Part shown: positions 4,716 to 62,991 of the stretch, in pieces
Numbering within the stretch: position 1 is the first letter of the stretch
Layout of the letters: each line of letters opens with the position of its first letter
Assembly (NCBI GenBank): GCA_964639895.1
Contig: CAZXEJ010000001.1
Span: 60,237-124,236, forward strand
Length of the DNA: 64,000 nucleotides
Reading direction: 5' to 3'
From: an uncultured Spirochaetia bacterium
GTDB taxonomy: Bacteria > Desulfobacterota_D > UBA1144 > Nemesobacterales > JADFKM01
Translations under genes and position numbers: made by a program
The notes under the pieces: generated by a model
What the model was told of the DNA's origin: nothing
Database searches by the model: none
The model's input: only the letters and a program-made list of their open reading frames with translations

Positions 4716-5257
4716 GACGCCTCCTGGCGAGCCTTCTCGAGGAACTCGTCCACGAACCTCGCGTTGTCGGCCTCGGTGATGTTGCGCCGTATCACCTCGA
4801 CGGAGCGCTCGACGACCTGGGAGGCGAACTCCCCTCGGACGGCGCGAATGGTCTTCTCGCGCTCGGCCTCGATGGTGAGCTTGGTGTCAGCCTCTATCCT
4901 GCGCGCACCCTCGCGGGCGGCGTTCAATATCTCATCGCTCTCCACACGAGCCTCGCGCCTCATCTTCTCCTCGAGCGACGCGATGGCATCGTCGATCGCC
5001 TCGAGCTTGCCCTTGTACTCTTCGTAACGCTTGCGGCTTGCGGCGAGCCTCTCCTGCGCCTCCTCCATGGAAGCGGCTATCAGACCGCGGCGCTCGAGGA
5101 AGAAGTTGCGAAGGGGTGTCCTCAAGAAGTAACCCAGAACCAGGACGAGTATTATGACGTTAACCGTATGCTCGCCGAGGAAAAACCAGTCCATGCCGCC
5201 CCCATGCCTGGAAGCGCCCGTGACGGCGAGCCACACCAGCTGATCCAGACCGCTCAC
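4703..5257 (-). CDS. atpF: ATP synthase Fo subunit b
   Basis: 184 aa. N-terminal TM helix followed by a long charged coiled coil (AEAERE... repeats). Overlaps atpH by 13 nt. The start may be the internal Met (MDWFFLGEHT..). Confidence 0.8.
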   Translation of the reverse strand: MSGLDQLVWLAVTGASRHGGGMDWFFLGEHTVNVIILVLVLGYFLRTPLRNFFLERRGLIAASMEEAQERLAASRKRYEEYKGKLEAIDDAIASLEEKMRREARVESDEILNAAREGARRIEADTKLTIEAEREKTIRAVRGEFASQVVERSVEVIRRNITEADNARFVDEFLEKARQEASWLR

Positions 5258-5778
5258 CGCTCCACCTCCCTTCCCAGTACGCGCGCGGCTATCTCACGGG
5301 CCAGCGTATCCACCTGGGGACGCAGGCTCTCGCGCAACCTCTCGGCCTCAAGGGCCATCTCACGGCGGGCCTCACCCAGCGCCGCGCGGGCCTGCTCTCT
5401 CGCTTCGGCCACTATGCGGCGCGCCTCTTCTTGGGCCCTCCGCTTGACCTCTTCCTTATCCTGCGTGAACCTCTCGACGGCCTCGCGAAGACGGGCTTCG
5501 TATTCGGCGGCGAGCTTTTCGGCCTCGGCGTCTATCGAGCCGGCCTCCTGGGCGGCGCCCTCGGTCAGCTTACGGCGCCTCTCGGCCAGGTCGAGAAGCG
5601 GCTTGAACACCAGCGAGTCGAGCAGGAATACGGTCGCCACAAACAGCGCCATCTGCACCAGCACCGTGCGGTCGAGCGCAAGGATGTCCTCGGCCGCGTA
5701 GGCCGGCACCGCCGAAGCCACGACCGCCGCACAAGCGGCCGCCGAAACCAGCAATATCCACGAGCGCCGGGGACTCAC
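5254..5778 (-). CDS. ATP synthase Fo subunit b-prime (second b-type subunit)
   Basis: 174 aa. TM helix plus the ..LVFKPL.. motif, then a charged coiled coil. Paralogous to the adjacent b subunit. 4-nt overlap with atpF. The N-terminal extension and start are uncertain. Confidence 0.7.
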   Translation of the reverse strand: MSPRRSWILLVSAAACAAVVASAVPAYAAEDILALDRTVLVQMALFVATVFLLDSLVFKPLLDLAERRRKLTEGAAQEAGSIDAEAEKLAAEYEARLREAVERFTQDKEEVKRRAQEEARRIVAEAREQARAALGEARREMALEAERLRESLRPQVDTLAREIAARVLGREVER

Positions 5779-7151
5779 CCGTTTCCTCCTCCACTTGTCT
5801 TGAGTCTCAGATCCTCCTCTATCCTCGCCCTCTCTATCCTGTCGGCGCCGAAAGCCACCTTGAGCAGGGGGGGCGCAACGAATGTGGTAAGCATGACCAT
5901 CACCGTGATTGCCGAGAACATCCTCGTATCGAAGACGCCTGAGATGAGGCCGAACTGCGCAAATATCAGACCGACCTCCCCGCGGGGTATCATGCCGACA
6001 CCTATGGCTATCTTGTTGAGTCCTTTCTGAACGACGGCGTATCCCGCGATCACCTTCCCAACTATGGCGACCACCGTAAGAACGGCAGCAATTAATAATA
6101 CCGGCAAATTCGCTTCATGAAAGGGATTGAACACACGAACGTCGACGGCGGCTCCGACCATTATGAAGAAGATGGGCGTAAACACGTCGGCTACAGGCTT
6201 GAGCCTGGTCTCGATGGACTCTACCTGGTTGGTGTTGGCCAACACGAGGCCGGCTGCAAACGATCCCACGATGGGGGCCAGGCCCACCAGCTTCGCGAAG
6301 TAGGCGAAGATGAATGCGAAGGCCAGTGCGCTGAGCAGCAGCACCCCCCTCACACGCATCTTGTTCACAACGTCGAACAGCCTGCGGGAAAAGAGGTTGC
6401 CCAACACGACGGAGCCGATCAGGAACCCGAACGCCTTGAGCGATATGACGCCCACCGTAAGAAATGAGATGTGAGGGGCCGACCCGCCTTCGACGGCCTC
6501 CACCAGTCCGGTCACCACTGCCAGTATCATCAGGCCGAGCACGTCGTCGATGACGGCCGCACCAAGCACTATGCGGGACTCCGCTGCCCGCAGGAGGTTC
6601 ATCTCCGAGAGCACGCGCGCCGTTATGCCTACGCTGGTGGCCGTCAGTGTAGCGCCCGCCGTTATCGCCACCACACCCACGAGACGCGGGTCCGACCCTC
6701 CGAGGATCCCCATCTTCTCGAACACCAGCACCACCACCGCCCCGAGCACGAACGGGGTCACAACGCCCACTACGGCCACGGCGAAAGAGCTGAGACCGAC
6801 CCTTATCATGTCCCTGAGATCGGTCTCGAGTCCTATCTCGAACAGCAATATAGCGACGCCCACCTCGGCCAGCAGATGGAACGTCTCGAAGCCGGGCGCC
6901 CCGGGACCAGACGGCAGCAACGCAAGGACGCTCCCGCCCAGAAGCACGCCCGCGAAAAGCTCACCCAGGACGGCGGGCTGCCGGATGCGCTCCACTATCT
7001 CTCCGAGCACCTTGGAAGATACAAGGATCAGCGCCAGTGCGAGGAGAAACTTCTCAACAGGAAAGACCGAAGTGTGTTCTGCAGCCATTTGCCTCTCGGG
7101 AAACGCCGGATACGGACCGCCATACCGTCCGCCGGCGAAAATGTTTAACAT
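5775..7151 (-). CDS. cation:proton antiporter (Na+/H+ exchanger, CPA-type membrane domain, no KTN domain)
   Basis: 458 aa polytopic membrane protein with Gly/Ala-rich helices (LGELFAGVLLGGS, GSFAAGLVLANT) typical of the Na_H_exchanger fold. The true start is probably the internal Met (MAAEHTSVFPVEKF..). The 3' end overlaps the predicted atpF-prime start by 4 nt. Confidence 0.85.
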   Translation of the reverse strand: MLNIFAGGRYGGPYPAFPERQMAAEHTSVFPVEKFLLALALILVSSKVLGEIVERIRQPAVLGELFAGVLLGGSVLALLPSGPGAPGFETFHLLAEVGVAILLFEIGLETDLRDMIRVGLSSFAVAVVGVVTPFVLGAVVVLVFEKMGILGGSDPRLVGVVAITAGATLTATSVGITARVLSEMNLLRAAESRIVLGAAVIDDVLGLMILAVVTGLVEAVEGGSAPHISFLTVGVISLKAFGFLIGSVVLGNLFSRRLFDVVNKMRVRGVLLLSALAFAFIFAYFAKLVGLAPIVGSFAAGLVLANTNQVESIETRLKPVADVFTPIFFIMVGAAVDVRVFNPFHEANLPVLLIAAVLTVVAIVGKVIAGYAVVQKGLNKIAIGVGMIPRGEVGLIFAQFGLISGVFDTRMFSAITVMVMLTTFVAPPLLKVAFGADRIERARIEEDLRLKTSGGGNG

Positions 7152-7314
7152 GAAACGGGTGGGGTGTCAAACGCTCCGTTTTGCAGTGTGGAAAGAGAAC
7201 GAGCCAAAGAAAATCAGTAATTAGAGGGGGTTGGAAGAGACGCCCGTCGAAGGTCCCACGCCCCGCGGGTGGCTGACCGGGGGCTCGACGCCAGCCGACC
7301 ACAGCGGCCCGGAG

Positions 7315-9012
7315 CTAGGGCACGGCGTGCCGTAAGTCGACCACCCGGGCGCGCACCTCGTGCCTGCCGTTCCATGTATCCAGTTCCGGAGTGAAGGCCA
7401 CGTCGACCACCTCTCCCTCGGCGGGGACGAACCCGCAGTCGAACCACAGGGCCTTCACTCTCCACTCGGGCGACGACAACCCCAGCAGCAGGTGCTTCTC
7501 CTTGAGCACCTTCCTCTCCTCGACGCGCACCGCCCGCACGGCGAAAACGGGTTCGGGATTGCCCTCGCCGAAGGGCTCGAGGGCGGCCAGCTCTTCGACG
7601 AGATGCTCGTTCACATCGCCGAGGGCGCATACGGCGTCGATCTCCAGCTTGGGAACGCTCGGTTCCACGACGCCGCGCATGGACTCGACCAGGCGCTCGC
7701 GCAGCAGCTCCACGTCCTCCGCCCGTATTGAGAAGCCGGCCGCCAGCTCGTGGCCGCCGAACTTGACGAAGAGCCCTTCGCCGCAGCTGCGCAGGGCGTC
7801 GTATATGTTGACCCCGTCGATGCTCCTCGCCGAGCCCCTGCCCACTCCGTCCTCGCCCACTGCCACCAGGACGACGGGCTTTCCGTAAAGGGATACGAGC
7901 CGCGAGGCGGCTATGCCCACCACCCCCGGGTGCCACGACGTCGAGGCCGCCACAAGGACCGGCGCTTCTCCTCCGCCGACGGCCGCCTTCGCCTCGCTGA
8001 CGACGGTGTTCTGCGCGGCCTGGCGCCGCGCGTTGTCTGCATCGAGCGACTCGGCAAGACGGCGTGCCCTCCGGGGGTCGCTAGTAACCAGCAGCTCGAC
8101 CGCGGCACGGGCGCTCGCAAGCCTTCCCGCGGCGTTGAGCCTCGGGCCCATACGGAAAGCCACGTCCGAGGCGCTCACCCGCTCGCCGAGGCCGCTTACG
8201 CGTTTTAGGGCCTCGACACCCGGCCTGTACCCCATGGCGATACGCTTGAGCCCCTCTCTGACCAGTATCCTGTTGACACCCACCAGCGGGGCGCAGTCGG
8301 CCACCGTCCCGAGGGCCACCAGGTCCAGGTAGTCACCCAGATTGGGCTCGGCCCCCCCGCGGAAGAACCCCTTCTCGCGCAACGTCCTGCGAAGGGCCAT
8401 AAGCAGGTTGAACACCACCCCCACGCCGGCTATCTCCTTGTCCGGGTAGGTACAGCCTTCCTGATGGGGATCGACGACGGCACACGCCGCGGGCAGCCGC
8501 TCGGGCACCTCGTGATGGTCGGTCACGATGAAATCGACCCCAAAACGCTTGGCCCGTTCCACCTCCTCGGCCGCAGTGATGCCGCAGTCGCACGACACCA
8601 CCAGCCTCACCCCCAGCCGTCTCAGCTTCTCGACGGCCGCAGCATTTACGCCGTAGCCCTCTTCCACGCGGTCGGGCAGGTAGTAGACGACGTCGCAGCC
8701 CAGGCGACCCAGGAACGAATACAGCAGAGCCGTCGACGTCACGCCGTCCACGTCGTAGTCGCCGAAGACGGCCACCTTCTCCCCCTTGAGGAGTGCACCT
8801 ACCAACCTGTCGACGGCCTCGGTCATCCCCTTGAGCAGAAAGGGCGACGGCAGGTCGAAGAGCGTGCCCTCTAGAAAACCCTTGGCTTCGGCCTCCGTAA
8901 CGTATCCTCGGTTGACAAGCACCTGAGCCGTAAGGGGTGACAACCCGAGGGCGGCCGAGAGGCGGCTTACGGCACCGCGATCGGGTTTCTTGAGCGACCA
9001 CTCCTTCTCCAT
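7315..9012 (-). CDS. recJ: single-stranded-DNA-specific exonuclease RecJ
   Basis: 565 aa. DHH motifs (VVSCDCGI, IVTDHH), the DHHA1 region and a C-terminal OB-like domain. Confidence 0.95.
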   Translation of the reverse strand: MEKEWSLKKPDRGAVSRLSAALGLSPLTAQVLVNRGYVTEAEAKGFLEGTLFDLPSPFLLKGMTEAVDRLVGALLKGEKVAVFGDYDVDGVTSTALLYSFLGRLGCDVVYYLPDRVEEGYGVNAAAVEKLRRLGVRLVVSCDCGITAAEEVERAKRFGVDFIVTDHHEVPERLPAACAVVDPHQEGCTYPDKEIAGVGVVFNLLMALRRTLREKGFFRGGAEPNLGDYLDLVALGTVADCAPLVGVNRILVREGLKRIAMGYRPGVEALKRVSGLGERVSASDVAFRMGPRLNAAGRLASARAAVELLVTSDPRRARRLAESLDADNARRQAAQNTVVSEAKAAVGGGEAPVLVAASTSWHPGVVGIAASRLVSLYGKPVVLVAVGEDGVGRGSARSIDGVNIYDALRSCGEGLFVKFGGHELAAGFSIRAEDVELLRERLVESMRGVVEPSVPKLEIDAVCALGDVNEHLVEELAALEPFGEGNPEPVFAVRAVRVEERKVLKEKHLLLGLSSPEWRVKALWFDCGFVPAEGEVVDVAFTPELDTWNGRHEVRARVVDLRHAVP

Positions 9013-9714: not shown

Positions 9715-11286
9715 CTAGCGGTCACGGCGCAGCAGGGCCGAGAACACGTATCGCACCTCGTCGACGCCGAAGACGCGGCAGCAGGCCACGTAGACCAAGC
9801 CGCCTGCTGCGAGCAATCCGAGCAGCGCCGCCGCGGCAGCACCCCCGCCAGCAGCCCAGACGCCTCCGCCCGCCGCCGAGAGGTGGTGGAGGACGACGCC
9901 CATGACCGCCGCGGCGGCGGCTATCCTTCCCGCACCGTCCAGCACGGGGCGTGCCCCGATACGGCCCATACGGCGGTCGAGCACCACGAGCAGGGCGGCG
10001 AACTGGACGGCGGCCGAGGCGCTCGAAGCGAGCGCGAGACCCAGGTGCTTGAGATCGAAGTGGAATGCGAGTGCGTATCCGAGTGCCGCATTTACGACCA
10101 GCGAGACGGCGGCTGCAAGCACGGGTGTCACCGTGTCCTTCAGCGCGTAGAACGTCGGCGCCGTGATCCGCACGCCCCCCACGGCCCAGAGCCCTACGGC
10201 GTAGCCGAGCAGCGACTGGGCCGCATAGAGCGTCTCGGTCGCTCCGAACTCCCCCCTCTCGTAGAGGACCCTACATATGGGGACGCGCAGTACGGCGAGC
10301 CCCACCAGGGCCGGCACCATGACGAACAACATCAGCCTCAGTGCCGAGACGTAGCCGCCGACGAACGCCTCCCGCCTGCCGGCCGCCGCCTCACGGGCTA
10401 GCGAGGGCAACAGGGCCGTCGCGATGGAGACGGCGAACACGCCGAGCGGAAACTCGATCAGCCTCTCGGCGTAGTAGAGATAGGAAACCGTCCCCGCCGG
10501 CAGGTGAGAGGCGTACTGGGTACTGACGACTATGTTTATGTTGTAGACCCCGAGGCCGAACAGCTGGGGCGCCATGAGCAGGTATATCTTCCGCACGGCC
10601 GGGTGGGACGCAGCCCTCCTGAGGCTGAACAGGAAACCGTATCTCCGGAGGAAGGGCAACTGCATCGCCACCTGCAGAACCCCTCCGGCCACCACTCCAA
10701 CGGCCGCAGCGTAGATGGGGACGCCCAGGACACGGTTGAGCCCGACGACGGAGGCTATGACGGCGAGGTTCAGCAGGAGCGGCGAGAGAGCGGGGGCGAA
10801 GAAATGCCTGAGCGTGTTGAGCACCCCCATCGATAGCGCCACAACGGAGACAAGCAATATGTAGGGGAACATGATACGGTTCATCTCCACCGCAAGCCGG
10901 AAGTAGCGGGGATCGAACCCAGATGCAAACAGCTTGACCACGTAGGGGGAGAACACGATGCCGACGGCCGTAAGGGCCGAGAGCACGAGCACGAGGGCGG
11001 TGAACACGGCGTCGGCCACCACCTTGGCCTCCCTCCTGCCGCCCGTGCGCAACACCTCGGTGAAGACGGGGATGAACGCCACCGTAAGTGACCCCTCGGC
11101 GAAGAGGCGTCTCAGCAGGTTGGGTATCCGGAAGGCCACGTAGAAGGCGTCCGTCTGACCGCTAGCGCCGAAGTAGTAGGCGAGAACGACGTCGCGCACG
11201 TAGCCGCCCACCCGGCTGAGAAGGGTGAGTCCTCCTATAAGACCGGCCGCGCGAACCATGCTGCGTCGTTCGTCCATCTCATCCAC
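9715..11286 (-). CDS. murJ: lipid II flippase MurJ (MviN)
   Basis: 523 aa, about 14 TM helices. N-terminus LLSRVGGYVRDVVLAYYFGASGQTDAFYVAFRIPNLLRRLFAEG is the MurJ signature region. Confidence 0.92.
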   Translation of the reverse strand: MDEMDERRSMVRAAGLIGGLTLLSRVGGYVRDVVLAYYFGASGQTDAFYVAFRIPNLLRRLFAEGSLTVAFIPVFTEVLRTGGRREAKVVADAVFTALVLVLSALTAVGIVFSPYVVKLFASGFDPRYFRLAVEMNRIMFPYILLVSVVALSMGVLNTLRHFFAPALSPLLLNLAVIASVVGLNRVLGVPIYAAAVGVVAGGVLQVAMQLPFLRRYGFLFSLRRAASHPAVRKIYLLMAPQLFGLGVYNINIVVSTQYASHLPAGTVSYLYYAERLIEFPLGVFAVSIATALLPSLAREAAAGRREAFVGGYVSALRLMLFVMVPALVGLAVLRVPICRVLYERGEFGATETLYAAQSLLGYAVGLWAVGGVRITAPTFYALKDTVTPVLAAAVSLVVNAALGYALAFHFDLKHLGLALASSASAAVQFAALLVVLDRRMGRIGARPVLDGAGRIAAAAAVMGVVLHHLSAAGGGVWAAGGGAAAAALLGLLAAGGLVYVACCRVFGVDEVRYVFSALLRRDR

Positions 11287-31391: not shown

Positions 31392-31466
31392 GGGCCCATA
31401 GCTCAGCCTGGTTAGAGCTCCCGGCTCATAACCGGATGGTCCCAGGTTCGAATCCTGGTGGGCCCA
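31392..31466 (+). tRNA. tRNA-Met (anticodon CAT), elongator-type; tRNA-Ile2 (lysidine) cannot be excluded
   Basis: Cloverleaf read by eye: acceptor GGGCCCA/TGGGCCC (7 bp), D-stem GCTC/GAGC, anticodon loop CTCATAA, T-arm CCAGG-TTCGAAT-CCTGG, discriminator A, CCA not encoded. G1:C72 is paired, so it is not an initiator. Coordinates may be off by 1-2 nt. Confidence 0.85.
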
Positions 31467-32375: not shown

Positions 32376-32811
32376 CCCCCCCGGCGGCGACTCCCCTCCC
32401 GTGACGCTCATCTATACCGACGGTGCATCACGAGGCAACCCGGGCAGGGCCGGCATAGGGGTCGTACTCCGGAGCGACGGCGCACTGCTGGGGACGATAA
32501 AGGCCTACATCGGCATACGCACCAATAACCAAGCCGAGTACGAAGCCCTGATAGCGGCCCTCAAGAAGGCGCGTGAGCTGGGCAGCAGGCGCCTGCAGAT
32601 ATTTACCGACTCACAGCTGCTTGCCAACCAGGTAAACGGCCTCTGGAAGATCAAGGACCCCACGCTGAGGGGCCTCTACGAGAAGGTGCGCTCGCTAATG
32701 CGCGGCTTCGATTCCGTAACGGTCACCCACGTGCGGCGCGAGCTCAACAAAGAGGCCGACCGCCTTGCAAACGAGGCGATAGATGATTATATAGATAAGG
32801 TGGGCGAGTGA
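32362..32811 (+). CDS. rnhA: ribonuclease HI family protein
   Basis: 149 aa. TDGASRGNPGRAGIGVVL (catalytic Asp), EYEALIAAL, and a C-terminal ADRLAN Asp. 14-nt overlap with the upstream zinc-ribbon gene. Confidence 0.85.
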   Translation: MRRPDPPGGDSPPVTLIYTDGASRGNPGRAGIGVVLRSDGALLGTIKAYIGIRTNNQAEYEALIAALKKARELGSRRLQIFTDSQLLANQVNGLWKIKDPTLRGLYEKVRSLMRGFDSVTVTHVRRELNKEADRLANEAIDDYIDKVGE

Positions 32812-33189
32812 GTCGGATGGTCGCTCGTCCCTCGCTCCTTCAGGGAGCGAGCGGGCGGGAGGAAAGTCCGAACTCGGCAGGGCAGAGCGCTGGGTAACAC
32901 CCAGGTGCCGTGAGGCAACGGAAAGTGCAACAGAGAGCAGACCGCCTAAGTCCACCTCCCCCGCCGAGGGGGGCGTGGACCGGCAAGGGTGAAAGGGTAG
33001 TGTAAGAGACTACCGCACGGCGTGGCGACACGCCGTGGCTAGGCAAACCCCGCTCCGAGCAAGACCAAATAGGGGGACGCTTGAGGGTGGCCCGCCCGAT
33101 GTCCCCGGGTAGGTCGCACGAAGCGCCCAGCAATGGGCGCTCCAGATGGATGACCATCCTCGACAGAATTCGGCTTACAGACTCACTCG
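32805..33189 (+). ncRNA. rnpB: RNase P RNA, bacterial type A
   Basis: P1 helix CGAGTGAGTC...GACTCACTCG. GGAGGAAAGTCCGAAC (P4 5' strand). ...GTGCAACAGAGAGCAGACCGCC..GGCAAGGGTGAAAGGGTAGTGTAAGAGACTACC..GAGCAAGACCAAATAGGGG...ACAGAATTCGGCTTACAG all align with E. coli M1 RNA conserved regions. Followed by a T-run. The 5' end overlaps the rnhA stop codon. Confidence 0.9.
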
Positions 33190-33611
33190 TCCGTTTTTTC
33201 TATACCAGCGCACGTAAAAACCCGCCCGAAACACCTCGAAAGACACCGCCGACGTACTCTTCTATGCCGCATACGCAAGCGCACCGCACGTTGTGACCCA
33301 GCCGCCGTCGGCACTCCGGGCCGATCGTCTCCACGTAACCTCCCCACATAGCACAACCCTACTGTAGTACACCGGCGCCGGGGCATAACTTTAACGCTCG
33401 TGGAACGGACACGGCGGGACGCCGACGGTAGGAAAACGCATCCTAGGCGGGGGCGGTGATCACCTGTGGGGAACCATATCACCGAGCCCGCCCACGGCGA
33501 GACGCAGAACCGCTCCCGCGCGAACGCCGCGGCGACGCTCCCCGCGGTGGGACCATTCCAACCGCCGACCTCCGACGACCCTCGAGCGGCTCCTGCAACC
33601 GGGGCTCGGCC

Positions 33612-52286: not shown

Positions 52287-53813
52287 ATGAAGAGACTCCA
52301 TCTGCTTACGACCGCCGCACTACTAGCCGGCATGCTTGCCGCCCTACCACTCCATGCCCAAGAACCCCCGGCCGGGAGAGCCTACGAGACCCGCCTCAAC
52401 AAGGCTTTGGCGGCCTACTACCGGCACAACTACGAGCAGGCGGCCTCGCTGCTCGAGACGCTGCTCGAGGCCAATCCCGACGATGTCGCCGCTACCCACT
52501 ACATGGGGCTAGTGCTCTACAAGTTTGGCCGCTACGACGAGGCTATCGGATTTCTCGAGCGGGCTCGTCGACTCGATCCGTCGCTTCCCGCGATAGAGCT
52601 AGACATAGGTCTTGCGCGCCTCAAGCAGGGACACTACGAGGAGGCCCTCGAGGCACTTCGGCACGCACAGAAAAAGCTTCCCGCAAGCGGATTCGTGGCG
52701 TTCAATATCGGCTACACGCTGTTTCTCCTAGACCGCTACGAGGAAGCCTTGGTCGAGCTACGCCGGGCGCGGCGACTGGACGCCGATTTCAGCGTCCCAT
52801 CGCTCTTCTACGAAGGGCTCTCCCTATATCACCTCGGCCGCTACCCCTCAGCGCTGGCCACGCTCCGCGACGTCCGCCGCCGGGGTGCAGGAACACCGTT
52901 CGGCATTTCCGCCGCTAGCTACATCGCCACACTCGAGCTGCTGACCAAGCCCTACTACGGCGCCCTTTCCACAGGTTACCAGTTCGACACCAATGTCGTC
53001 CTTGAGCCTGACGCGATCGAGATAACCGACGAGCAGGACAGCCGCTGGTTTGCAAACTTCACCGTCGCCTGGAGGCCCGTGCTCAAGGACGACTACGAGC
53101 TCAAGGCCTCCTGGAACACATACTTCTCCCTCCACGCCGACATCGAGCAGCTTAACCTGCAGGCCCATCGCTTCGACATCACCAGCACCAAACGCACCAC
53201 CCTCGGCCGCTACCCGGCGGCCTTCACCTTCAACTACTTCTACAACTTCGTCCTCGTCGACGGTTCCCCGGCCGACGAGCTGTTCTCCCAGACGCACGCC
53301 GTCTCACAGTCGTTGAGCGTCGCCTGGGCCAAGCACATCTCGACCGAGGTGGCGGCCGAGCTTCGCTTCGACAACTTCAAGGAGTTCCCCGAGCGTGACG
53401 CCGTCCGGGCTACTTTCACCGTTGCCGAATCCATCCTGCTGAGGCGGGGGCTCACGCTGCTGCGCCCCGGTGTGACGGCATCGTTCAACTTCGCAGACGA
53501 TATCGCTGGCAGGCGCAACTTCGACCAGGCCCTGGGCGGTGTGTTCATCGAGACCACTTCCTACATGCCGTGGGAGCTCACCCTGTTCGCCCGCCTACAC
53601 TACTACGCCGCTTCCTATTACAACGACCCCTTCGACAGGGTGGACAACCAGCTCGGCCTCAAGGTGGTCGTCTCACGCAGGCTCTACCGGACGGTCTCGC
53701 TCGACCTCGGCTGGGAGAACGTCTCCAACTTCTCCAGCAGCGACTTTCCCGGCCCCGAGCCGTTCGAATATTTCCGCAACATCTTCTCGGCCACTTTGTC
53801 CGCACGTTTTTAG
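52287..53813 (+). CDS. outer-membrane protein with N-terminal TPR domain and C-terminal beta-barrel (Slam/DUF560-like architecture)
   Basis: 508 aa. Signal peptide MKRLHLLTTAALLAGMLAALPLHA. About 6 TPR-like repeats in residues 30-230. The C-terminal ~280 aa show alternating amphipathic beta-strand patterning and end in ..ATLSARF, the aromatic terminal residue typical of an OMP beta-signal. Confidence 0.7.
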   Translation: MKRLHLLTTAALLAGMLAALPLHAQEPPAGRAYETRLNKALAAYYRHNYEQAASLLETLLEANPDDVAATHYMGLVLYKFGRYDEAIGFLERARRLDPSLPAIELDIGLARLKQGHYEEALEALRHAQKKLPASGFVAFNIGYTLFLLDRYEEALVELRRARRLDADFSVPSLFYEGLSLYHLGRYPSALATLRDVRRRGAGTPFGISAASYIATLELLTKPYYGALSTGYQFDTNVVLEPDAIEITDEQDSRWFANFTVAWRPVLKDDYELKASWNTYFSLHADIEQLNLQAHRFDITSTKRTTLGRYPAAFTFNYFYNFVLVDGSPADELFSQTHAVSQSLSVAWAKHISTEVAAELRFDNFKEFPERDAVRATFTVAESILLRRGLTLLRPGVTASFNFADDIAGRRNFDQALGGVFIETTSYMPWELTLFARLHYYAASYYNDPFDRVDNQLGLKVVVSRRLYRTVSLDLGWENVSNFSSSDFPGPEPFEYFRNIFSATLSARF

Positions 53814-53842: not shown

Positions 53843-54691
53843 GTGCGTAACTCATCCGTCCTGGCTTCGGCTGGGGTGATAGTGTGTATTATCCTCTGCG
53901 TCGCAACCGCTGGGCGCGCCCACGCCCAACAGCGGGGAGACGCCGTGGGTGTGGTCACGGTGACCGTGGGCGCCGTATCGGTGGAGAGCAACGGCCTCGT
54001 GGAGCGCGTGGTGCCGGGCTCCGCCGTCTACGTGGGAGACGTCTTCAGGACGGGTGAGGACTCGGCGCTCAACATCATGCTCGACGACGACACGTTGCTC
54101 ACACTGGGCGCCGACGCTGAATTGGAGATCACTCGGTTCATCTACAACCCCGCGGCCGAGAGGAACTCGACGTTCAGGGTGCTGAAAGGCATCCTCAAGG
54201 CCGTCGTGGAGAGATTCGCCGCGGGCCCCTCGGAAGTGAGGTTTGTGACGCCGCGCGGTGTGGCCGGCATAAAGGGTACCGTGCTGTATGTCGACGCCGA
54301 CCGCGGTGTGTTCTACGTATTGGAGGGTACGGTGCATGTACGGGGCACCGCCCCCCAAGCCGCCGAGGTGGTGCTTACGAGCGGCACCTATACGGTGATC
54401 CCCGAAGGAGGTTCGCCCTCCAGTCCGGCCGCGGCAGACGACGAACTGAGAGAGGGCTTCGAGAAGGCCACACACGTCGAGCCGACGCCCGGTGCTCAAG
54501 ACCCCTCGAGGGAGGAAGACTACCCCGGCAGCGAGGCGGGCGACGACTATTCCAAGACGTTCGAGGGCGGAAGCGCCGGCTGGCTCGCAAGCAACCTTCC
54601 GCTGAGGCCGCCCGTGGACCTGTTGCCGAGCGTGGACGTACACAACAGGGCGCTGGTCGAGGTGGTGATACCCACGCCGCCCGGACCCTGA
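53843..54691 (+). CDS. FecR-domain protein (secreted/periplasmic)
   Basis: 282 aa. GTG start 10 nt after an AGGAGGG Shine-Dalgarno. Signal peptide, then a FecR-like region (VGVVTVTVGAVSVESNGLVERVVPGSAVYVGDVFRTGEDSALNIMLDDDTLLTLGADAELEI). Confidence 0.7.
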   Translation: MRNSSVLASAGVIVCIILCVATAGRAHAQQRGDAVGVVTVTVGAVSVESNGLVERVVPGSAVYVGDVFRTGEDSALNIMLDDDTLLTLGADAELEITRFIYNPAAERNSTFRVLKGILKAVVERFAAGPSEVRFVTPRGVAGIKGTVLYVDADRGVFYVLEGTVHVRGTAPQAAEVVLTSGTYTVIPEGGSPSSPAAADDELREGFEKATHVEPTPGAQDPSREEDYPGSEAGDDYSKTFEGGSAGWLASNLPLRPPVDLLPSVDVHNRALVEVVIPTPPGP

Positions 54692-54716: not shown

Positions 54717-55628
54717 ATGACGAAACAGCAACGCCATACCCAAGGGCCGGCGCAAGGGGCCGAGATCCAAACCGTACCATGTAGTTTCGCGGCCTACGCC
54801 GTAAAGACCGCTCTGCTCATTCTCGTCTTCGCCGCCGCGGCCTCATGCGGCGGGGGGGGCACCGACACGGCCACCATCACCGTGATGACGGAGTTTCCCC
54901 ACGCCCCTGCCGTGGGGGTGACATCGGCGGAATCGAGTGCTTCCACGCTGGGAATCGATACCGTCTCGCTCAGCGTGCTCGGGCCCGACATGGAAGAGAT
55001 ACGGCGCACCTTCTCCGCACCCGGTCTTGATTCGGCGGGCGAAGCCGTCTTTGCAAGGATATTCCTCTTCGTCCCCGTGGGCCCCGACAGGGTATTCCGA
55101 GTGGTCCTCTCTGACGAGGGAGGACGTACCGTGTTCACGGGGTCGGCGACCTCAGACATCGAGCCCGGGCACAACGTGGTGGTCATACCGCTCAGGCCAA
55201 AGGACTGCGCCGACGGCCTTGACGACGATTTCAACGGCCTGATCGACTGCGCCGACGTCGTAAGCTGCGAGGGACAACCGTGCGATCAATCTGACATGAG
55301 AAAGATATGTATCGAAGGGGCGTGTGAGCTGCCGCCGGAGGCGTCCGGGCCGCCGGTTCCGGCCCCTCCCTCGGCGGGCGGCGAGGAGAACTGCGCCAAC
55401 GGCATTGACGACGACGGAGACGGGTTCACCGACTGCCAGGACACGTGGGACTGCGCCGGCAGGCTGTGTCTCGACGAAGACGAGACCGCCGGATCCTGCG
55501 ATCCAACTACTTCGAGCTGCGTAGTACCGGAAACCCAGCCCACCCCGGTGCCCATACCGAGCGGACCCCCGATGCCCACTCCATCTCCGTCACCCACGTT
55601 CTCGCCGCCTCCGCCTCCGCTGGGTTGA
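54717..55628 (+). CDS. lipoprotein with Cys/Asp-rich calcium-binding-like repeats and Pro-rich tail
   Basis: 303 aa. TM/signal plus lipobox (AAAASC). Two repeats CADGLDDDFNGLIDCADVVSC and CANGIDDDGDGFTDCQDTWDCAG, resembling thrombospondin-type-3-like DxDxDG motifs. C-terminus PTPVPIPSGPPMPTPSPSPTFSPPPPPLG. Confidence 0.65.
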   Translation: MTKQQRHTQGPAQGAEIQTVPCSFAAYAVKTALLILVFAAAASCGGGGTDTATITVMTEFPHAPAVGVTSAESSASTLGIDTVSLSVLGPDMEEIRRTFSAPGLDSAGEAVFARIFLFVPVGPDRVFRVVLSDEGGRTVFTGSATSDIEPGHNVVVIPLRPKDCADGLDDDFNGLIDCADVVSCEGQPCDQSDMRKICIEGACELPPEASGPPVPAPPSAGGEENCANGIDDDGDGFTDCQDTWDCAGRLCLDEDETAGSCDPTTSSCVVPETQPTPVPIPSGPPMPTPSPSPTFSPPPPPLG

Positions 55629-55763
55629 ATGCGCAGTAGACACCCCTCTTCGGGCCGACGTCGAGCGCGTGAGCACGTCCAAAGTGGAGGGAGACGCAGG
55701 GGACGAATCAGGCGCGCTCCTATCGGGAAGACGCGCGAAAACAACAGGAGAACGAGCGTGACG

Positions 55764-57284
55764 ATGGCGACAAAGCTGTCGAGAACGAGAACCCAGACGC
55801 AGGTAGAGAAGCTGAACGCCCTCTTGGAGATAGGCAAGTGTCTGGCCTCGGAAAGGGACCTCGACAAGCTGCTTGAGATGATCGCCCGCGAAGTCACCCA
55901 CGTCACGAACGCCGACAGGAGCACCATCTTCGTAGTGGACCGTGAGAAGGGCGAGCTCTGGTCCCGGATAGCGCAGAACCTGGAGATCACCGAGATAAGG
56001 ATGCCGATCGACCGCGGAATCGCCGGTTACGTGGCGACGAGCGGCGAGATCGTAAACGTCGCCGACGCCTACAAGGACCCGCGTTTCAACACCGAGGTGG
56101 ACCAGCTCACCGGCTACAAGACGCACTCCCTTCTGTGCGCCCCCATGGTTACGCGTGAGAACGACATCATCGGCGTCATCGAGGTCCTGAACAAGCACGG
56201 CGGGCCGTTCACGGCCGAGGACGAGGAGATACTGCTCGCCTTCGCAGGCGAGGCGGCCGTGGCCGTCGAGAACGCCCTGCTCTATGAACAGATAGAGCTG
56301 ATAATGGAAAGCTTCATCGGCGCAGCCGTCTACGCCATCGAGTCCCGAGACCCCACCACGTCGGGCCACTCGGCCCGCGTGGCCGCCTACACGCTCAGCC
56401 TGGCAAAAGCCGTCAACGAAATCACCACCGGACCGCTGGCCGACGTCAACTTCACCCCAAGGGAACTGAAGGCCCTGAGATACGCCTGCTTGCTGCATGA
56501 CTTCGGCAAGATCGGCGTCAGGGAAGCCGTGCTGCTGAAATCCAACAAGCTGTACGAACACGAGCTGGAGCTGCTGCTCATGCGGTTCCGGCTGATAAAG
56601 CGCAGCATCGAGGCCGACATACTGAAGAAGAAGCTCGAGATATTGCAGAGCGGCACCGGCGACGCCGACGACGCCCTTGCCAGGCTGGACGAAGAAATCG
56701 ACCGGGAGTTTCGCAAGATAGACGACTACCTGAAGTTCATACTAGAGTGTAACAAACCCACCACCACGCCACGGGACAACTTCGCCAAGCTGCGCCACAT
56801 AGCGCAACAGACCTACACCGACGTCGACGGCGCGCAGAAACCCTATCTGACGCAGTACGAGCTGGAGAGCCTCTCGATCGAGGTAGGCAGCCTGCGCCAG
56901 CACGAGCGCCTCGAGGTGGAGTCGCACGTAACCCAGACGGTGAACTTCCTGAAGAAGATCCCCTGGACGAAGGACCTCAAGGACATAGCCCTCATAGCCG
57001 GACGCCACCACGAGCGGCTGGACGGCTCCGGCTACCCGGACCAGTTGGATGGCCGGCACATCCCCTATCAGACGCGCATGATGATGATAGCCGACATATA
57101 CGACTCGCTCACGGCCATGGACAGGCCCTACAAGAAGACCTTCACGCCCGCCAAGGCCCTGGAGGTCCTCAAAGAGGAGGCAAGAAAGAACAAGATCGAC
57201 GGCGACCTGCTCAAGGTGTTCATCGAGGCCGAGATATACAAGAAGGGACTCGATCAGACTCCGCTGCCTGGTACGAAGCCATAG
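55764..57284 (+). CDS. GAF domain-containing HD-GYP phosphohydrolase (candidate c-di-GMP phosphodiesterase)
   Basis: Start MATKLSRT. GAF domain (ASERDLDKLLEMIAREV...). HD domain (HSARVAAY..LLHDFGKIG) with HHERLDGSGYP, the HD-GYP signature. Confidence 0.9.
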   Translation: MATKLSRTRTQTQVEKLNALLEIGKCLASERDLDKLLEMIAREVTHVTNADRSTIFVVDREKGELWSRIAQNLEITEIRMPIDRGIAGYVATSGEIVNVADAYKDPRFNTEVDQLTGYKTHSLLCAPMVTRENDIIGVIEVLNKHGGPFTAEDEEILLAFAGEAAVAVENALLYEQIELIMESFIGAAVYAIESRDPTTSGHSARVAAYTLSLAKAVNEITTGPLADVNFTPRELKALRYACLLHDFGKIGVREAVLLKSNKLYEHELELLLMRFRLIKRSIEADILKKKLEILQSGTGDADDALARLDEEIDREFRKIDDYLKFILECNKPTTTPRDNFAKLRHIAQQTYTDVDGAQKPYLTQYELESLSIEVGSLRQHERLEVESHVTQTVNFLKKIPWTKDLKDIALIAGRHHERLDGSGYPDQLDGRHIPYQTRMMMIADIYDSLTAMDRPYKKTFTPAKALEVLKEEARKNKIDGDLLKVFIEAEIYKKGLDQTPLPGTKP

Positions 57285-57891: not shown

Positions 57892-57959
57892 CTGACCTAC
57901 CCCACATTTAAATGCCTACTTCACCCATCCGGTATCCTGAGAGCGCATGCTCCACCGCC

Positions 57960-58002
57960 GATCCTCTTTATACTTGCTCTCGTAATAAGTATAAAGAGGA
58001 TC
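57960..58002. promoter_or_regulatory. perfect 16-bp inverted repeat (GATCCTCTTTATACTT-N11-AAGTATAAAGAGGATC)
   Basis: Read directly from the sequence. AT-rich palindrome about 70 bp upstream of the HTH gene start. No T-run follows, so it is not a typical intrinsic terminator. Confidence 0.35.
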
Positions 58003-58639
58003 CAAGCGTAGTGTACCACTGCCGCTTCAGATACATTCGTCAGGGTTCGTATATTCTAAATTAAAGTTGCACTACCTACAATTCCCAAAATGGTACCACT
58101 CACGGCCGTCGTAGATGGGACTCGGCTCATACCCCCCACCCTCTACGGGGAAGGGGCCGCCAGACCGTCACCCGAACCCCTTTCTCCGGCTACACGACCC
58201 CCACGGCCGGAGACACCCCACCGCAACACGGGGCCAATCGCCCGTGAAGAGAGGAAGCGGCGGGTGCGACGGTAACGTAAGGCGAATCGGGGCTAGATGA
58301 TCTTGCAGCCTCGCGCAAGGACCAACCACTATTCGCACGGCATCCGGCAACGGCGGGATGGCAGCGTCCCAGGGTGTTGTGTCGCGCTACTCCCCTACCT
58401 CCCCATTCAGCTCAAAAGCGCGGCCCGATCTGCCGGAAAGACGACCGCGAGATCCCTCCCCCCTGGCCCGTCGCCCCATCCGCACCGACCACGCACACAC
58501 CACACGGCCCGACACCCATACAACACGGGTCCGCTCCGCTTCACCCCCCTCAAGACTCCGTCCCTCCTTCTCCGGACCGCCGCGGCTCGGCTGTGGTATA
58601 TTGTAGTTTGACTCGCACACCATCAGGGAGGGAGTAGAA

Positions 58640-59742: not shown

Positions 59743-60076
59743 GACGTATCGGCGGAGAGACGGCGAATCCTATGGAATCTAACACAGAGCGGCCGAGCTG
59801 TCCACAAGAATTCCTTGCATTCCTTCCTCGTAGTTCTACTATAATAGTAATAGAACCGTAATCGAGGGGTGAGTCTCGTTCACTGACCGATCGTCGGCCT
59901 TATGACGCATCTGAGCGAAATCCTACCAGCACATGCATCCGGCGGTGGTTGCCGCCGCGCACCACATATTACGCGCAGCCACCCACACTCCCTTCAGCTC
60001 CGCAGCACGTAGCATCCATCACCTCCAACACACCCTCTACGGGCTCACCCCGTAGCAGAGGCGGAGGTGAAACCAG

Positions 60077-61765
60077 ATGATAAACCCACGCGTTGTACCC
60101 CCACTACGGGTGGGCTGCCTGTTGTTGGCCGCCCTATCCTTCGTGGCACTCGCACCGACGGAATCCTCGCCGCGTGACCCTACAGGACGCCTTACCACCG
60201 GCTGGGGGCTGCATCGGGTGGTATTCTCCGTCCCCGAGGGCGACGTAGTCGTCATGCTGCCGGACGACCTTGCGGCGGGCGACACCATATCGGGCGCCGT
60301 CGTAGCCGCGCCGGCCGGCAAGGGGCGCAAGCGCCGCAAGATGGCCGACCGCCTGGAAGGCTACGTCGTGGCGGCCGAGGAGATGAAGGCGCCGGTGGGA
60401 AAGGGCGCGCTCAAGTGGACGGTGCCCGCGGCGCTGGCAGGAGGTACGGCTACGCTCATACTGCTGGATGAGAAGGGCAACGCGGCAGCCCGCACGGAGG
60501 TGCCCGTCGCGGCAGCACCGCCGCCCGCCGCGGTTGCGGAACCCCTGCCCGAGGACTTCGCGCTGCCCGAGATAGGGCAAGCGGGAAGACCCATCTCGAT
60601 CGGCGGTCCCTTCGACGGCGAGTTCGGGACCACAGCGGTCAAGATGGGCGGCGAGACGATCCCCCTTCTGGCCGAATCTCCCCGCAAGGTGGTGGTCCGC
60701 ACACCTCGTGACGTCGTGGGCGGGACGGAGCTCGAGGTGCGGGAGGGCGACGTCGTCGCCAAGGGCACTATCTACAACGTCGGTGTCTCGCTCTCGGCTC
60801 CCCGCACCAAGCTGCACCAAGGCGAGGAGACGACGCTCCAGCTGACGGTCGAGGGGCTCGCGGGCTACGGCAGGCCGCTTGACGTCTACGTGCGGAACGA
60901 GACGCCCGAAGTGGTATCGATGGAGGGCGGCAACCTGATCACCGTACGTATCAACCCCGACGACCTGGACGAAGAAGGCCTGTTCACAGCCACCATACCC
61001 GTGAGAGCGGTCAGGATGGGATCGTTCTCCATCTCGGCCGTCGTAGCCGCGGCGAGTGACCGGCACGACTACTCCACCACCCGCAGGTGGAAGAGCGTCA
61101 ACCACGACCTGGCCGCGTCCTCCAGATGGAAGAAGCGGCACAACGAGTCGGTGAGCGTGGCCGAGAAGCTGCCCGAGAGACACGCGGAAGAGTTGTCGGA
61201 GAAGTGGGTCGGGCGCAAGCACAGCTTGAGCACGAGCAGGAAGTGGCGTGCCGAGGGCCATGCGCTGGCGTTGACCGAGCGCTGGGGGAAGCACGCCTAC
61301 GCCCGCTCCCGGCAGTGGTCACACTCGAACCATGCGGTCGAAGCCTCGCGGCGGTGGAAGGACGACGGCCACGCCCACGGCACATCGCGGCTGTGGAGGG
61401 GCGAAGGACATGCATACGAACAAAGCACCGCATGGGCACGCCTGAAGCCCAAACACTCCTATGTGACGTCGAAGCACTGGAAGGGCTACGGCCACAAGGA
61501 GGCCGATTCGTGGAAGTGGAGGGCCGAGAAACACCAGCCGGGTATAAGCATAAAACGGGTCGGCAAACACGAGGCCGACACAACCAAGATGTGGAAAGGC
61601 GACCTCCACCGCGAAAAGCTCTCGCGCCGCTGGCGTGGTGAGGAACACCGCTACACGACGTCCATGAAATGGAAGGACGAGAGGCACAACCACCGCTTCT
61701 CGCGCAGGTGGAAGGGCGAGGGCCACAACTACGGCGAGAGCCGCAAGTGGCAGGGGAAGCGTTGA
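60077..61765 (+). CDS. secreted protein with C-terminal Trp/His/Lys/Arg-rich 13-residue tandem repeats
   Basis: 562 aa. Signal peptide (MINPRVVPPLRVGCLLLAALSFVALA). Residues 30-350 are likely beta-rich. Residues ~350-562 consist of about 16 copies of S-[RK]-[RK]-W-[KR]-x-[ED]-G-H-x-[YH]-x-x (e.g. SRRWKDDGHAHGT, SRLWRGEGHAYEQ, SRRWKGEGHNYGE). GAGGCGGAGG Shine-Dalgarno upstream. Confidence 0.7.
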   Translation: MINPRVVPPLRVGCLLLAALSFVALAPTESSPRDPTGRLTTGWGLHRVVFSVPEGDVVVMLPDDLAAGDTISGAVVAAPAGKGRKRRKMADRLEGYVVAAEEMKAPVGKGALKWTVPAALAGGTATLILLDEKGNAAARTEVPVAAAPPPAAVAEPLPEDFALPEIGQAGRPISIGGPFDGEFGTTAVKMGGETIPLLAESPRKVVVRTPRDVVGGTELEVREGDVVAKGTIYNVGVSLSAPRTKLHQGEETTLQLTVEGLAGYGRPLDVYVRNETPEVVSMEGGNLITVRINPDDLDEEGLFTATIPVRAVRMGSFSISAVVAAASDRHDYSTTRRWKSVNHDLAASSRWKKRHNESVSVAEKLPERHAEELSEKWVGRKHSLSTSRKWRAEGHALALTERWGKHAYARSRQWSHSNHAVEASRRWKDDGHAHGTSRLWRGEGHAYEQSTAWARLKPKHSYVTSKHWKGYGHKEADSWKWRAEKHQPGISIKRVGKHEADTTKMWKGDLHREKLSRRWRGEEHRYTTSMKWKDERHNHRFSRRWKGEGHNYGESRKWQGKR

Positions 61766-61848
61766 GGGCGCAGCGGATACGGCGCAGGAGCCTGAGGTGG
61801 GGCGGCGTCCGGCACCCTTCTGCGCGCTCCTGGGAGGAGGGGCGCGGC

Positions 61849-62991
61849 GTGCGGGGGGTGCGTGGGCGCCTTTCCCCGCTGCCGCCGCTTGCGCTCGCTC
61901 TGCTCCTATGCGTCGCGTGCCACGCTGCCACTCCTCCCATGGCCGGCCCCCCGGCCGGGCCAGACGGCGGAGCCGTACTGCAGGGCACCGTGACCGGCCC
62001 TGGCGAGGCCCCGCCGCACATCCCCTCCACACCGCACCCCTCCTTACGCCCTCGGCCGGTGCTCCAGACGAACGAGGCGTTCATCCGCTCACTGCACACC
62101 AACCTCGACATCACCGATACAAGAGAAGTGTTCTACTTCGTCCTCTCCTCCCTTCCACCACAGGTGGACGTCATCCCCACGGAGAACTACTACTACTTCT
62201 CCTTCTACACGGCTGGAAGGGAGGTGCGCGGCAACATTCGGTTCGACGTCTACGACCGCGACGAGGGACGAGTGAGCTTCGTCTACTACGTACACCGCCC
62301 CCACGGCGAACCCTGGCGCGAGAGCGCCACGTGGCAGGCCGCGTTGGGCGCCGAGCAAGGCGTATACGTACTGAAGGTCTCTGACAACGTTTACGCCGTC
62401 TCGATGAGGGGCAAAACGGTCCGTTTCCACCTGAACCCTGCTCCCAGGACGCCTCCCGCCGTGGCGCGGCTGGCCGAGGGCGATGAACTCATGGGGCGTG
62501 CGGTGGACGAATCGGGCATAGCGTTCCTGCTCGTCTACGATACGCGGCGCAAGGCCTTCATCTGGCTGCTCGACGAGGAACGACCCACGCCGCCGCTGGA
62601 AAGGATAGCCGAGGGCATGCTGCTGGACCCGCTGAGCGGGTTCATCTTCTGGGACGACCGTCAGCGGCGGGCCAAGGTGCTCATAGGGGTGAGTGCCCGC
62701 GATGTGAGGCTCAACACCTACTGGGACGGCCCCTTCGACCAGCTACCCGACAACAACCCCCATCCGCGGCTCAAGGAGAGGCTCGAGGAGGCCCACCCCT
62801 ACGCACGCGGAAGGCTCGACGCGCTGGGGCGGTTTACGGACGAGAAGAGGATGAGGATGGCCGTGACGCCCTACTACGAGTACGAGACGCTCGATGAGAT
62901 GGCCGACCTCGTCGAGGACTGCAGGCGCCGCGAGCCTGCCTACATCGTCGACTGCCTCACCTACGATTGGAAGAGCTCGCTCGAGCCCTGA
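61849..62991 (+). CDS. hypothetical secreted protein
   Basis: GTG start (VRGVRGRLSPLPPLALALLLCVAC...) 6 nt after a GGGAGGAGGGG Shine-Dalgarno. Signal peptide, then a Tyr-rich core (YYYFSFYTAGREVRGNIRFDVYDRDEGRVSFVYYVHRP). The tracked 440-aa ORF from 61669 overlaps the upstream gene and is trimmed. Confidence 0.55.
   Translation: MRGVRGRLSPLPPLALALLLCVACHAATPPMAGPPAGPDGGAVLQGTVTGPGEAPPHIPSTPHPSLRPRPVLQTNEAFIRSLHTNLDITDTREVFYFVLSSLPPQVDVIPTENYYYFSFYTAGREVRGNIRFDVYDRDEGRVSFVYYVHRPHGEPWRESATWQAALGAEQGVYVLKVSDNVYAVSMRGKTVRFHLNPAPRTPPAVARLAEGDELMGRAVDESGIAFLLVYDTRRKAFIWLLDEERPTPPLERIAEGMLLDPLSGFIFWDDRQRRAKVLIGVSARDVRLNTYWDGPFDQLPDNNPHPRLKERLEEAHPYARGRLDALGRFTDEKRMRMAVTPYYEYETLDEMADLVEDCRRREPAYIVDCLTYDWKSSLEP

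Follow-up and report, generated by a model that had tools for sequence, protein, structure and literature searches.

The 64,000-nucleotide stretch of contig CAZXEJ010000001.1 analysed here, below referred to as the window, stems from an uncultured Spirochaetia bacterium (assembly GCA_964639895.1) and contains a gene (60077..61765, + strand) for a 562-residue protein, predicted to be exported, in which a stalk of immunoglobulin (Ig)-like domains carries an old, unit-wise conserved array of 13-residue Trp/His units belonging to a small, undescribed repeat family. It is followed by a second gene (61849..62991, +) whose 380-residue product, by its N-terminus likewise predicted to be exported, belongs to another undescribed family and is genetically coupled to the array. 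The finding is a rare conserved two-gene module with both components undescribed rather than a single odd protein. We infer that the repeat protein and its partner form a module located in the periplasm or at the cell surface, and they probably work together at the latter.

The array occupies residues 335–562 (61079..61762, +) and consists of 17 His-bearing units with a period of 13, followed by a terminal partial unit SRKW. According to its consensus in this protein, S-[RK]-[RK]-W-[KR]-x-[DE]-x-H-x-[YH]-x-x, the units are laid out with a leading Ser/Thr, a Trp four residues in and, another five residues on, a His. The Trp residues are spaced by 13 across residues 338 to 558, and the identity autocorrelation of residues 340–562 has z-scores of 9.1 and 8.7 at lags 13 and 26, respectively (500 shuffles), the highest value at lags that are not multiples of 13 being z = 3.9 (lag 24). 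An earlier note on this DNA, made from the letters alone, had described about 16 strict 13-residue units with one invariant Trp each. The periodicity is confirmed by the autocorrelation at lag 13, but the count is 17 plus the partial unit, three units are irregular (11 residues at residue 400, 15 at 450 and 12 at 478), and Trp is found in 15 of the 17 full units, those at 361 and 490 being devoid of it. Two further details of that description had to be abandoned: the His stands in a Gly-His context in only 5 of 17 units (50% family-wide), and the basic residues, put at 3–4 per unit, number 1–4, with acidic residues also present in every unit. The very high isoelectric point (pI) claimed there was found, amounting to 9.77 for the whole protein, 10.47 for residues 340–562 and 5.47 for residues 1–339. 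The 39-nt DNA units are on average 45% identical to each other, and Tandem Repeats Finder detected no DNA repeat in the array. The array has a grand average of hydropathy of −1.62 and 36% charged residues, which puts it on the disordered side of a charge-hydropathy plot; of 11 members compared, 10 have repeat regions on that side. AlphaFold returned a mean local confidence (pLDDT) of 25–35 for the array alone and of 51, with a global score (pTM) of 0.24, when the family alignment was supplied; the pattern of a nine-residue helix and a four-residue loop with a period of 13 seen in that model was discarded as not trustworthy at such values.

The array can be compared unit by unit with that of an orthologue from a Candidatus Dadabacteria metagenome-assembled genome (MAG; locus L013, protein MCH8028656.1 = P0036) with a GC content of 52%, 11 points from the window genome; a MAG labelled Thermodesulfobacteriota encodes a near-identical protein (P0037). 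Over its full length P0036 aligns colinearly with the window protein, with 50.7% identity in the Ig module and 45.7% in the array, where only 6 gap positions occur in 228 residues and the P0036 pI is 9.8. Irregular units occur at the same places in both proteins (TERWGKHAYAR / SRKWNGHKYTQ and STAWARLKPKHSYVT / SRKWERRKPKKHAYET), and so do the two Trp-less units. When S, W and H are left out, orthologous units have 3.6 of 10 non-anchor positions in common compared to 1.5 of 10 for non-orthologous units, and none of 10,000 permutations of the unit order reached the observed value. The colinear unit-wise identity implies that the array is old and position-specific and did not arise by slippage; together with the diverged DNA copies it upholds the earlier statements that no recent slippage took place and that the periodicity is under selection. 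Judged by these alignments, the array appears to behave as a structured or interface-forming element under purifying selection and not as an expanding and contracting low-complexity tract. Its unit-level conservation and its disordered-type composition might be reconciled by a chain that becomes ordered only upon binding of a ligand or a partner. A further orthologous sequence (L001; ENA ERZ27262642, k141_105588) is 79% identical to the window at the DNA level but contains 31 indel events, and in-frame stops interrupt the repeat gene as well as the Ig part; the sequence has either decayed or been assembled poorly or as a chimera. In comparison with the window, the ratio of nonsynonymous to synonymous substitution rates (omega) is 0.33 in the array frame and 0.9–1.7 in the other frames, which, with L001 being a poor sequence, favours the array frame only weakly; in the Ig part omega is 0.92, the synonymous divergence (dS) being 0.14 there and 0.47 in the array.

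An exhaustive phmmer search of 1.84 billion representative proteins (cut-off E ≤ 1e-3) yielded a rare repeat family of 15 representatives, all with 13 as the mode of the His-His spacing, so that the repeat is not unique to the window protein. Its carriers are Dadabacteria/Thermodesulfobacteriota-type MAGs and other metagenome lineages. A word-indexed search with the array alone gave a single match, the frameshifted close relative P0022, and a profile of four-unit blocks (52 columns) found nothing in the word-indexed protein database. The family consensus, drawn from 141 units of 14 proteins anchored on W-x4-H, reads [ST] (85%) - [RK] - x - W - x - x - [DE] - G (50%; D/N 24%) - H - x - [YF] - x - x; its features are limited to the Trp, the His, the leading Ser/Thr and the residues around the His. 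The array is found in three architectures, namely behind the same three-domain Ig stalk as in the window protein (P0023), behind the last Ig domain only (P0025–P0027, P0030, P0034) or directly behind a signal peptide (P0024, P0028, P0032, P0033, P0035); in P0035, a FIMAH domain separates two repeat blocks. P0024 mixes the 13-residue units with 12-residue units of the type S-x-x-W-P-P-x-H and thereby assigns both types to one family. The pI of the repeat region varies from 4.5 to 10.5 across the family, most members being acidic or neutral, and strongly basic repeat regions are restricted to the window protein, its orthologue and P0031. The earlier statement that the repeat belongs to no described family holds: no Pfam family covers the repeats in 9 relatives, NCBIfam contains nothing for those of the 15 members, and phmmer found no match to the repeat region among the PDB sequences at E ≤ 10. 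The source name of every member is “hypothetical protein”, and full-text literature searches found no description of such a repeat. In the neighbourhood of P0035 (L127, GCA_053532655.1), genes for prefoldin, SRP54 and a pyruvoyl-dependent arginine decarboxylase are present, which suggests an archaeal host; the contig ends shortly after P0035, before any partner position becomes visible. At the DNA level, the pattern (TGG-N12-CAY-N21) x4 was scanned in genome contigs with one genome per species. Nearly all of the more than 120 stretches obtained were rejected as 39-bp DNA tandem repeats in a chance frame, L013 being the sole true relative. Such unrelated 39-bp (13-codon) tandem repeats mimicking W-x4-H occur, for example, in Obscuribacterales (L035), Bacillaceae (L054) and Bdellovibrionales (L070; scan L005–L124).

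The second component of the module, the partner gene at 61849..62991 (+), begins 83 nt behind the repeat gene with a GTG codon preceded at a distance of 8 nt by the Shine-Dalgarno sequence GGAGGAGG (61833..61840, +). No terminator-like site was found on the + strand between 61765 and 61849, which makes a co-transcription of the two genes plausible. The gene downstream of the repeat gene at L013 encodes a protein 41% identical to the window partner (E = 4e-104), and a partner homologue adjoins the repeat gene at every repeat locus with sufficient flanking sequence, across a range of 35–67% GC and all three architectures. The partner lies beside the repeat gene at L001, L126, L211 and L212; it follows two tandem repeat genes at L125 (2–658 and 668–1723) and at L128 (3605–4861 and 4540–5982), accompanies a repeats-only protein at L129 (36% GC), and at L208 (35% GC) stands behind P0024 (6001–7443) and a 173-residue mini repeat protein (7447–7968). 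At L210, one gene with a beta-lactamase domain is inserted between partner and repeat gene, and at L003 a partner fragment is found upstream of P0023. No partner gene was detected within 6 kb of P0002 and P0008, two Ig-stalk paralogues without His repeats, and an all-against-all comparison of 15 loci revealed no third conserved gene. A collection of plasmids, searched with the repeat protein and the partner protein, contained no match for either.

The partner family is far larger than the repeat family, with at least 389 relatives in a metagenome scan. Among the best 80 partner loci, about a dozen adjoin a protein with other short His-containing repeats. These include exported proteins with 12-mers TWPPxH (L133, about 7000–8444; L134, 2–655; L140, 3207–4652) or 9-mers TWPPH (L138, 1264–2427), a 10-mer S-x-x-x-x-H tail on the same Ig stalk (L136), 8-mers [ST]-x-x-H (L137, L149, L188) and 9-mers in very large proteins (L162 and relatives). 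At L133 the gene order is reversed, with the partner first; an apparent fusion of partner and repeat in one long ORF at this locus was rejected, since neighbouring genes in different frames encode the two. A neighbour-joining tree built from 87 partner domains groups the repeat-linked members together, and a large soil clade in it, often next to era, is without repeats. The partner protein, also when represented by a 30-sequence profile, has no relative in Pfam, NCBIfam or the PDB sequences. Its invariant residues are P110, E112, Y114, Y116, G128, R131, D220, S222, F237, L241, N289, the segment D293-G-P-F-D-Q298, P317, G327 and R336. At the N-terminus, compared with the lipobox [LVI][ASTVI][GAS]C at the end of a signal peptide, the window protein has a near-lipobox LLLCVAC with a Cys at −3, LISFGC of the L013 partner fits the relaxed PROSITE pattern, the L133 partner carries a plain signal peptide and the L208 partner an N-terminal membrane helix. 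The earlier note had listed this gene as coding for a signal-peptide protein with no recognisable domain, which agrees with the lack of any family match, but its role as the conserved partner of the repeat had been overlooked.

The frame and the start of the repeat gene are well defined. The open reading frame (ORF) 60077–61765 (+) is real and includes its stop codon, and the gene is delineated by both the ORF and the homologue alignments. The GC content at third codon positions (GC3) is 0.85 in this frame, as in the neighbouring genes, which argues that it is coding, and a Shine-Dalgarno sequence GGAGGTG (60063..60069, +) is located 7 nt upstream of the ATG at 60077. The public call for the identical sequence (P0001) uses a later GTG start and comprises 515 residues. 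Since homologues align from residue ~40 (TTGWGLH...), i.e. upstream of this GTG, and the orthologue P0036 agrees, the longer 562-residue version is correct. Its N-terminus with a basic n-region and a subsequent 15-residue hydrophobic stretch resembles a Sec signal peptide or an N-terminal anchor (residues 1–27, MINPRVVPPLRVGCLLLAALSFVALAP; 60077..60157, +), an assignment suggested by the n-h-c pattern and by the AlphaFold prediction of a helix for residues 10–24; the Ala-Leu-Ala in this region precedes a Pro and marks no clear cleavage site. As a comparable N-terminus exists in all homologues, the repeat protein appears to be exported.

The signal region is followed by a conserved module of three IPT/TIG-type Ig-like beta-sandwich domains (residues 40–325; 60194..61051, +), predicted by AlphaFold with pLDDT values above 90 and with the seven strands expected of such a sandwich. 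Together with the signal-type N-terminus, these domains support the earlier description of a secreted protein with a beta-rich N-terminal part. On the sequence level the module is barely recognizable: the 562-residue protein has no match in Pfam-A (2025) at E ≤ 1 and solely a sub-threshold NCBIfam (r20) match located in its N-terminal part, and Pfam TIG stays slightly under its cut-off in the relative P0023 (20.0 vs 20.9 bits). The Ig module is common to 20 homologues from Dadabacteria, Acidobacteriota and metagenomes, which have nothing else in common; their C-terminal parts are mutually unrelated, with CarboxypepD_reg, CARDB, FAS1 and Pro/Glu-rich linkers among them. We therefore regard the Ig module as a reusable stalk and the repeat array as one of its cargos; the module is also found without repeat and without partner. 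The same three-domain Ig stalk is combined with another His-periodic, Trp-free tail in P0010 (S-[KQ]-R-E-x-H every ~10 residues), and at L136 an Ig-stalk protein with a Trp-free His-periodic tail (4401–5798) is encoded directly upstream of a partner homologue.

As to the function of the module, we tentatively favour, as a minority proposal among several, a multivalent binding strip centred on the His residues, with a divalent metal cation as preferred ligand and the partner involved in docking, loading or modification. The array would be natively unfolded by its composition, with almost no hydrophobic core, and each unit would form one His-centred site flanked by the Trp, by an acidic, Gly or Asn residue before the His and by an aromatic residue two positions after it. 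Upon binding of the ligand and/or the partner protein the strip would probably become ordered. The periodic His residues might, by analogy, hold the metal cation, the Trp might serve as a cap or second-shell residue of the metal site, and the partner might bind to the array once this is loaded, or else be responsible for its loading, unloading or modification. The strong positive charge of the window copy and its Dadabacteria orthologue would be a lineage trait that may add electrostatic retention on the envelope. A central role of the His is indicated by all partner-linked repeats having one His and one Ser/Thr per unit in common. Several points weigh against this proposal, in which metal binding is derived by analogy. 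His is sparser here, at one per 13 residues, than in classical His-rich metal proteins, and metal binding alone leaves the invariant Trp and the conserved Ser/Thr unexplained. The unit-specific conservation would also fit a fixed protein-protein interface or a defined fold, and the predicted helix-loop period of 13 cannot hold for the Pro-rich 12-mer variants. The invariant polar residues of the partner are E, D, S, N, Q and R, with no invariant His, Cys or Met. Moreover, the metal transporter gene next to the repeat gene, VIT1, is peculiar to the window, and no metal-handling gene is conserved beside the pair.

The strict coupling of the two genes is also compatible with a different relationship, in which the partner, as an extracytoplasmic enzyme, uses the array as its substrate and carries out modification, cross-linking or cleavage of each unit at the conserved Ser/Thr, His or Trp; this would amount to a repeat-directed maturation in the manner of multi-core peptide precursors, but with an exported protein. 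It would account for the association of partner relatives with several unrelated-looking short repeats that have only [ST] and H in common and for the fact that a single partner gene can be accompanied by as many as two or three repeat genes (L125, L128, L208), and the invariant residues E112, R131, D220, S222, N289, D293, D297, Q298 and R336 together with the aromatic ones resemble an active site. However, sequence searches link the partner to no enzyme family, the units are not separated by any conserved cleavage motif, the array is fused to a folded Ig stalk, and the conserved order of individual units is unexpected for interchangeable cores. We consider this alternative rather unlikely, if less so than those that follow. 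Somewhat less probable still is the binding of a glycan or envelope polymer such as peptidoglycan, exopolysaccharide (EPS) or lipopolysaccharide (LPS), in the manner of the aromatic choline- or cell-wall-binding repeats and with the partner as a glycan-active or anchoring protein. The periodic Trp and Tyr/Phe, the His and the Asp/Glu/Asn/Arg/Lys residues are typical of sugar-binding sites, and the partner is rich in invariant aromatic residues and carboxylates; yet some of the partner-linked repeats of other lineages (the 8- and 10-mers with only [ST] and H) lack any aromatic residue, neither a carbohydrate-binding nor a glycoside hydrolase family was matched, and genes for polysaccharides are not conserved in the vicinity.

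A self-associating matrix or adhesive domain, which condenses in a pH- or metal-dependent manner via aromatic, His and Arg “stickers”, is suggested by the disordered-type composition, the evenly spaced Trp and Tyr, the adhesin-like stalk and a G-H-x-Y sub-motif recalling GHGLY (PMC6884462). Sticker-spacer systems tolerate shuffling of their units, whereas here unit order, irregular units and spacer residues are kept between orthologues, and the dedicated partner would be left without explanation; this possibility is accordingly doubtful. A polycationic tail for polyanion binding (LPS, nucleic acid, EPS) or for membrane insertion of the type known from Arg/Trp antimicrobial peptides had been put forward in the earlier note and finds some basis in the array pI of 10.5 here and 9.8 in the Dadabacteria orthologue and in the one Trp and 1–4 basic residues per unit. 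Given that the relatives' repeat pI covers 4.5–10.5 and is mostly acidic or neutral, charge cannot be the conserved function; every unit contains acidic residues, processing sites are not conserved, and a single Trp per unit within a 562-residue protein does not speak for an RW-type antimicrobial peptide, so that both versions appear highly improbable. A functionless low-complexity spacer or a mis-framed, non-coding stretch, to which the lack of a confident AlphaFold structure and the long spurious ORFs common on other frames at high GC might point, is hardly credible and in its non-coding version refuted, in view of the GC3 of 0.85 in frame, the 46% colinear identity with a 52%-GC orthologue and the unit-specific conservation, with the synonymous bias towards this frame alone in comparison with the poor L001 sequence (omega 0.33) adding a little.

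Beyond the favoured proposal of a His-centred binding strip, a more general scheme may be envisaged, to which we attach a somewhat lower likelihood than to the strip itself. The module would represent an undescribed extracytoplasmic system of bacteria and probably archaea, in which a dedicated globular protein, of the “TENYYYF / NYWDGPFDQ” partner family, recognises and acts on periodic Ser/Thr...His motifs, either by metal loading and stripping or by covalent modification and cross-linking, the 13-mer being one of several repeat “dialects” (13-, 12-, 10-, 9- and 8-residue).

Upstream of the repeat gene, the link to the divergently transcribed VIT1 gene drawn in the earlier note is not supported, as neither VIT1 nor DUF302 was found at other repeat loci. 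The Fur-box-like near-palindrome postulated between the two genes finds no support either: the scan of 59743–60076 against the E. coli consensus (GATAATGATAATCATTATC-like), the sole consensus scored, gave a best match of 10/19, which is equalled or exceeded in 85% of shuffles and by 652 sites of the window. The region contains a perfect palindrome TACTATaATAGTA (59837..59849, without strand assignment) inside GTTCTAC-TATAAT-AGTAATAGAAC, which is unique in the window, is not a Fur box and is separated by 95 nt from the start of VIT1 and by 228 nt from the ATG at 60077. In this AT-rich palindrome (59831–59854) a perfect TATAAT is embedded in the inverted repeat GTTCTA/TAGAAC. At the orthologous loci L211 (about 9930–9965) and L013, TATAAT is likewise found inside an inverted repeat (AGCCCCA...TGGGGCT), ~30–40 nt upstream of the repeat gene, though without sequence conservation. 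The palindrome may therefore serve the repeat operon, as its promoter or operator, instead of regulating VIT1. In the leader of the repeat gene, CACCTCC (60020–60026) is the exact complement of the Shine-Dalgarno sequence GGAGGTG and is predicted to pair with it, a perfect 7-bp hairpin CTACGGG...CCCGTAG being nested between them. The predicted fold of 60006–60079 (−27 kcal/mol for the 74 nt) would hide the ribosome-binding site, and the whole 227-nt leader folds marginally better than shuffled sequences (z = −1.9).

Between 57800 and 60100, neither a Fur box matching the E. coli consensus nor an Rfam element was detected. The ~750 bp between the HTH-like and DUF302 genes (57892–58639) contain no convincing ORF and are C-rich, their GC skew falling to −0.27; at E ≤ 1 they match nothing in Rfam. 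Further upstream, the + strand encodes a TPR protein (52287–53813), a FecR-domain protein (53843–54691), a family-less 303-residue protein (54717–55628) and a protein with GAF and HD-type phosphohydrolase domains (55629–57284), none of which is kept beside the repeat gene at other loci. The window also contains a bacterial class A RNase P RNA (32805–33193; 299 bits) and a tRNA-Met gene (31392–31466).

The pair is conserved across genomes of 35–67% GC and in three architectures, probably also in archaea, and no family, structure or paper exists for either protein. Two genes and one motif thus provide a testable handle on the envelope biology of little-studied lineages, Dadabacteria and Thermodesulfobacteriota MAGs among them. 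Should the array be a periodic strip for a metal or another ligand, it would constitute a natural multivalent scaffold in which every site has its own Trp reporter, suited to fluorescence and engineering. If the partner is an enzyme acting on short His repeats, a new kind of repeat-directed protein maturation would be at hand. Even if neither applies, a new repeat family and a new domain family are added to the libraries.

Among known systems, the stalk has the same fold as those of Bacteroides SGBP-B and similar surface proteins with IPT/TIG-type domains, but the likeness is restricted to the fold level (10–22% identity) and is uninformative on the repeat. C-terminal arrays of short aromatic repeats are also present in the choline-/cell-wall-binding proteins (CW_binding_1) and in the clostridial CROPs. 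They tether an exported protein to an envelope polymer and form their sites from consecutive units. Their units of ~20 residues build beta-hairpin solenoids in Gram-positive bacteria with a GW...YY pattern in which His is no feature, in contrast to the array with its period of 13 and no HMM match. For the metal-binding proposal, the closest counterpart is the octarepeat region of the prion protein (PrP; PHGGGWGQ, Cu(II)/Zn(II)-binding), whose HGGGW unit binds Cu(II) through the His and which, like the array, is extracytoplasmic, natively unfolded and multivalent and is composed of a short tandem unit with one His, one Trp and Gly beside the His (PMC6721516). There is no homology, and for the array metal binding is a proposal. 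The period is 13 and not 8, the Trp stands 5 residues before the His instead of 4 after it, the Gly, when present, occupies position −1 of the His instead of following it as Gly-Gly, and the array, which counts 17 units, also has a conserved Ser/Thr and is accompanied by a partner gene of its own; in order, spacing and period, the array thus differs from a PrP-type site throughout. The His-rich proteins of the squid beak, with GHGxY pentapeptide repeats, likewise combine His and aromatic residues in a regular short repeat of disordered composition outside the cell (PMC6884462), but they are animal proteins with a period of 5, without Trp or partner and with interchangeable units, whereas the units of the array are individually conserved. 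Precursors of multi-core ribosomal peptides such as the fungal ustiloxin/dikaritin type also place many tandem copies of a motif beside a dedicated protein gene; they differ from the module, in which no known maturase family and no conserved inter-unit cleavage site is found, the array sits on a folded exported protein and the units are not interchangeable. Arg/Trp-rich antimicrobial peptides, finally, are short, free and cationic, unlike an array with one Trp per unit and no conserved charge inside a 562-residue protein. Exported short-period repeat arrays on Ig-like stalks are a known kind of protein; new are both protein families of the module.

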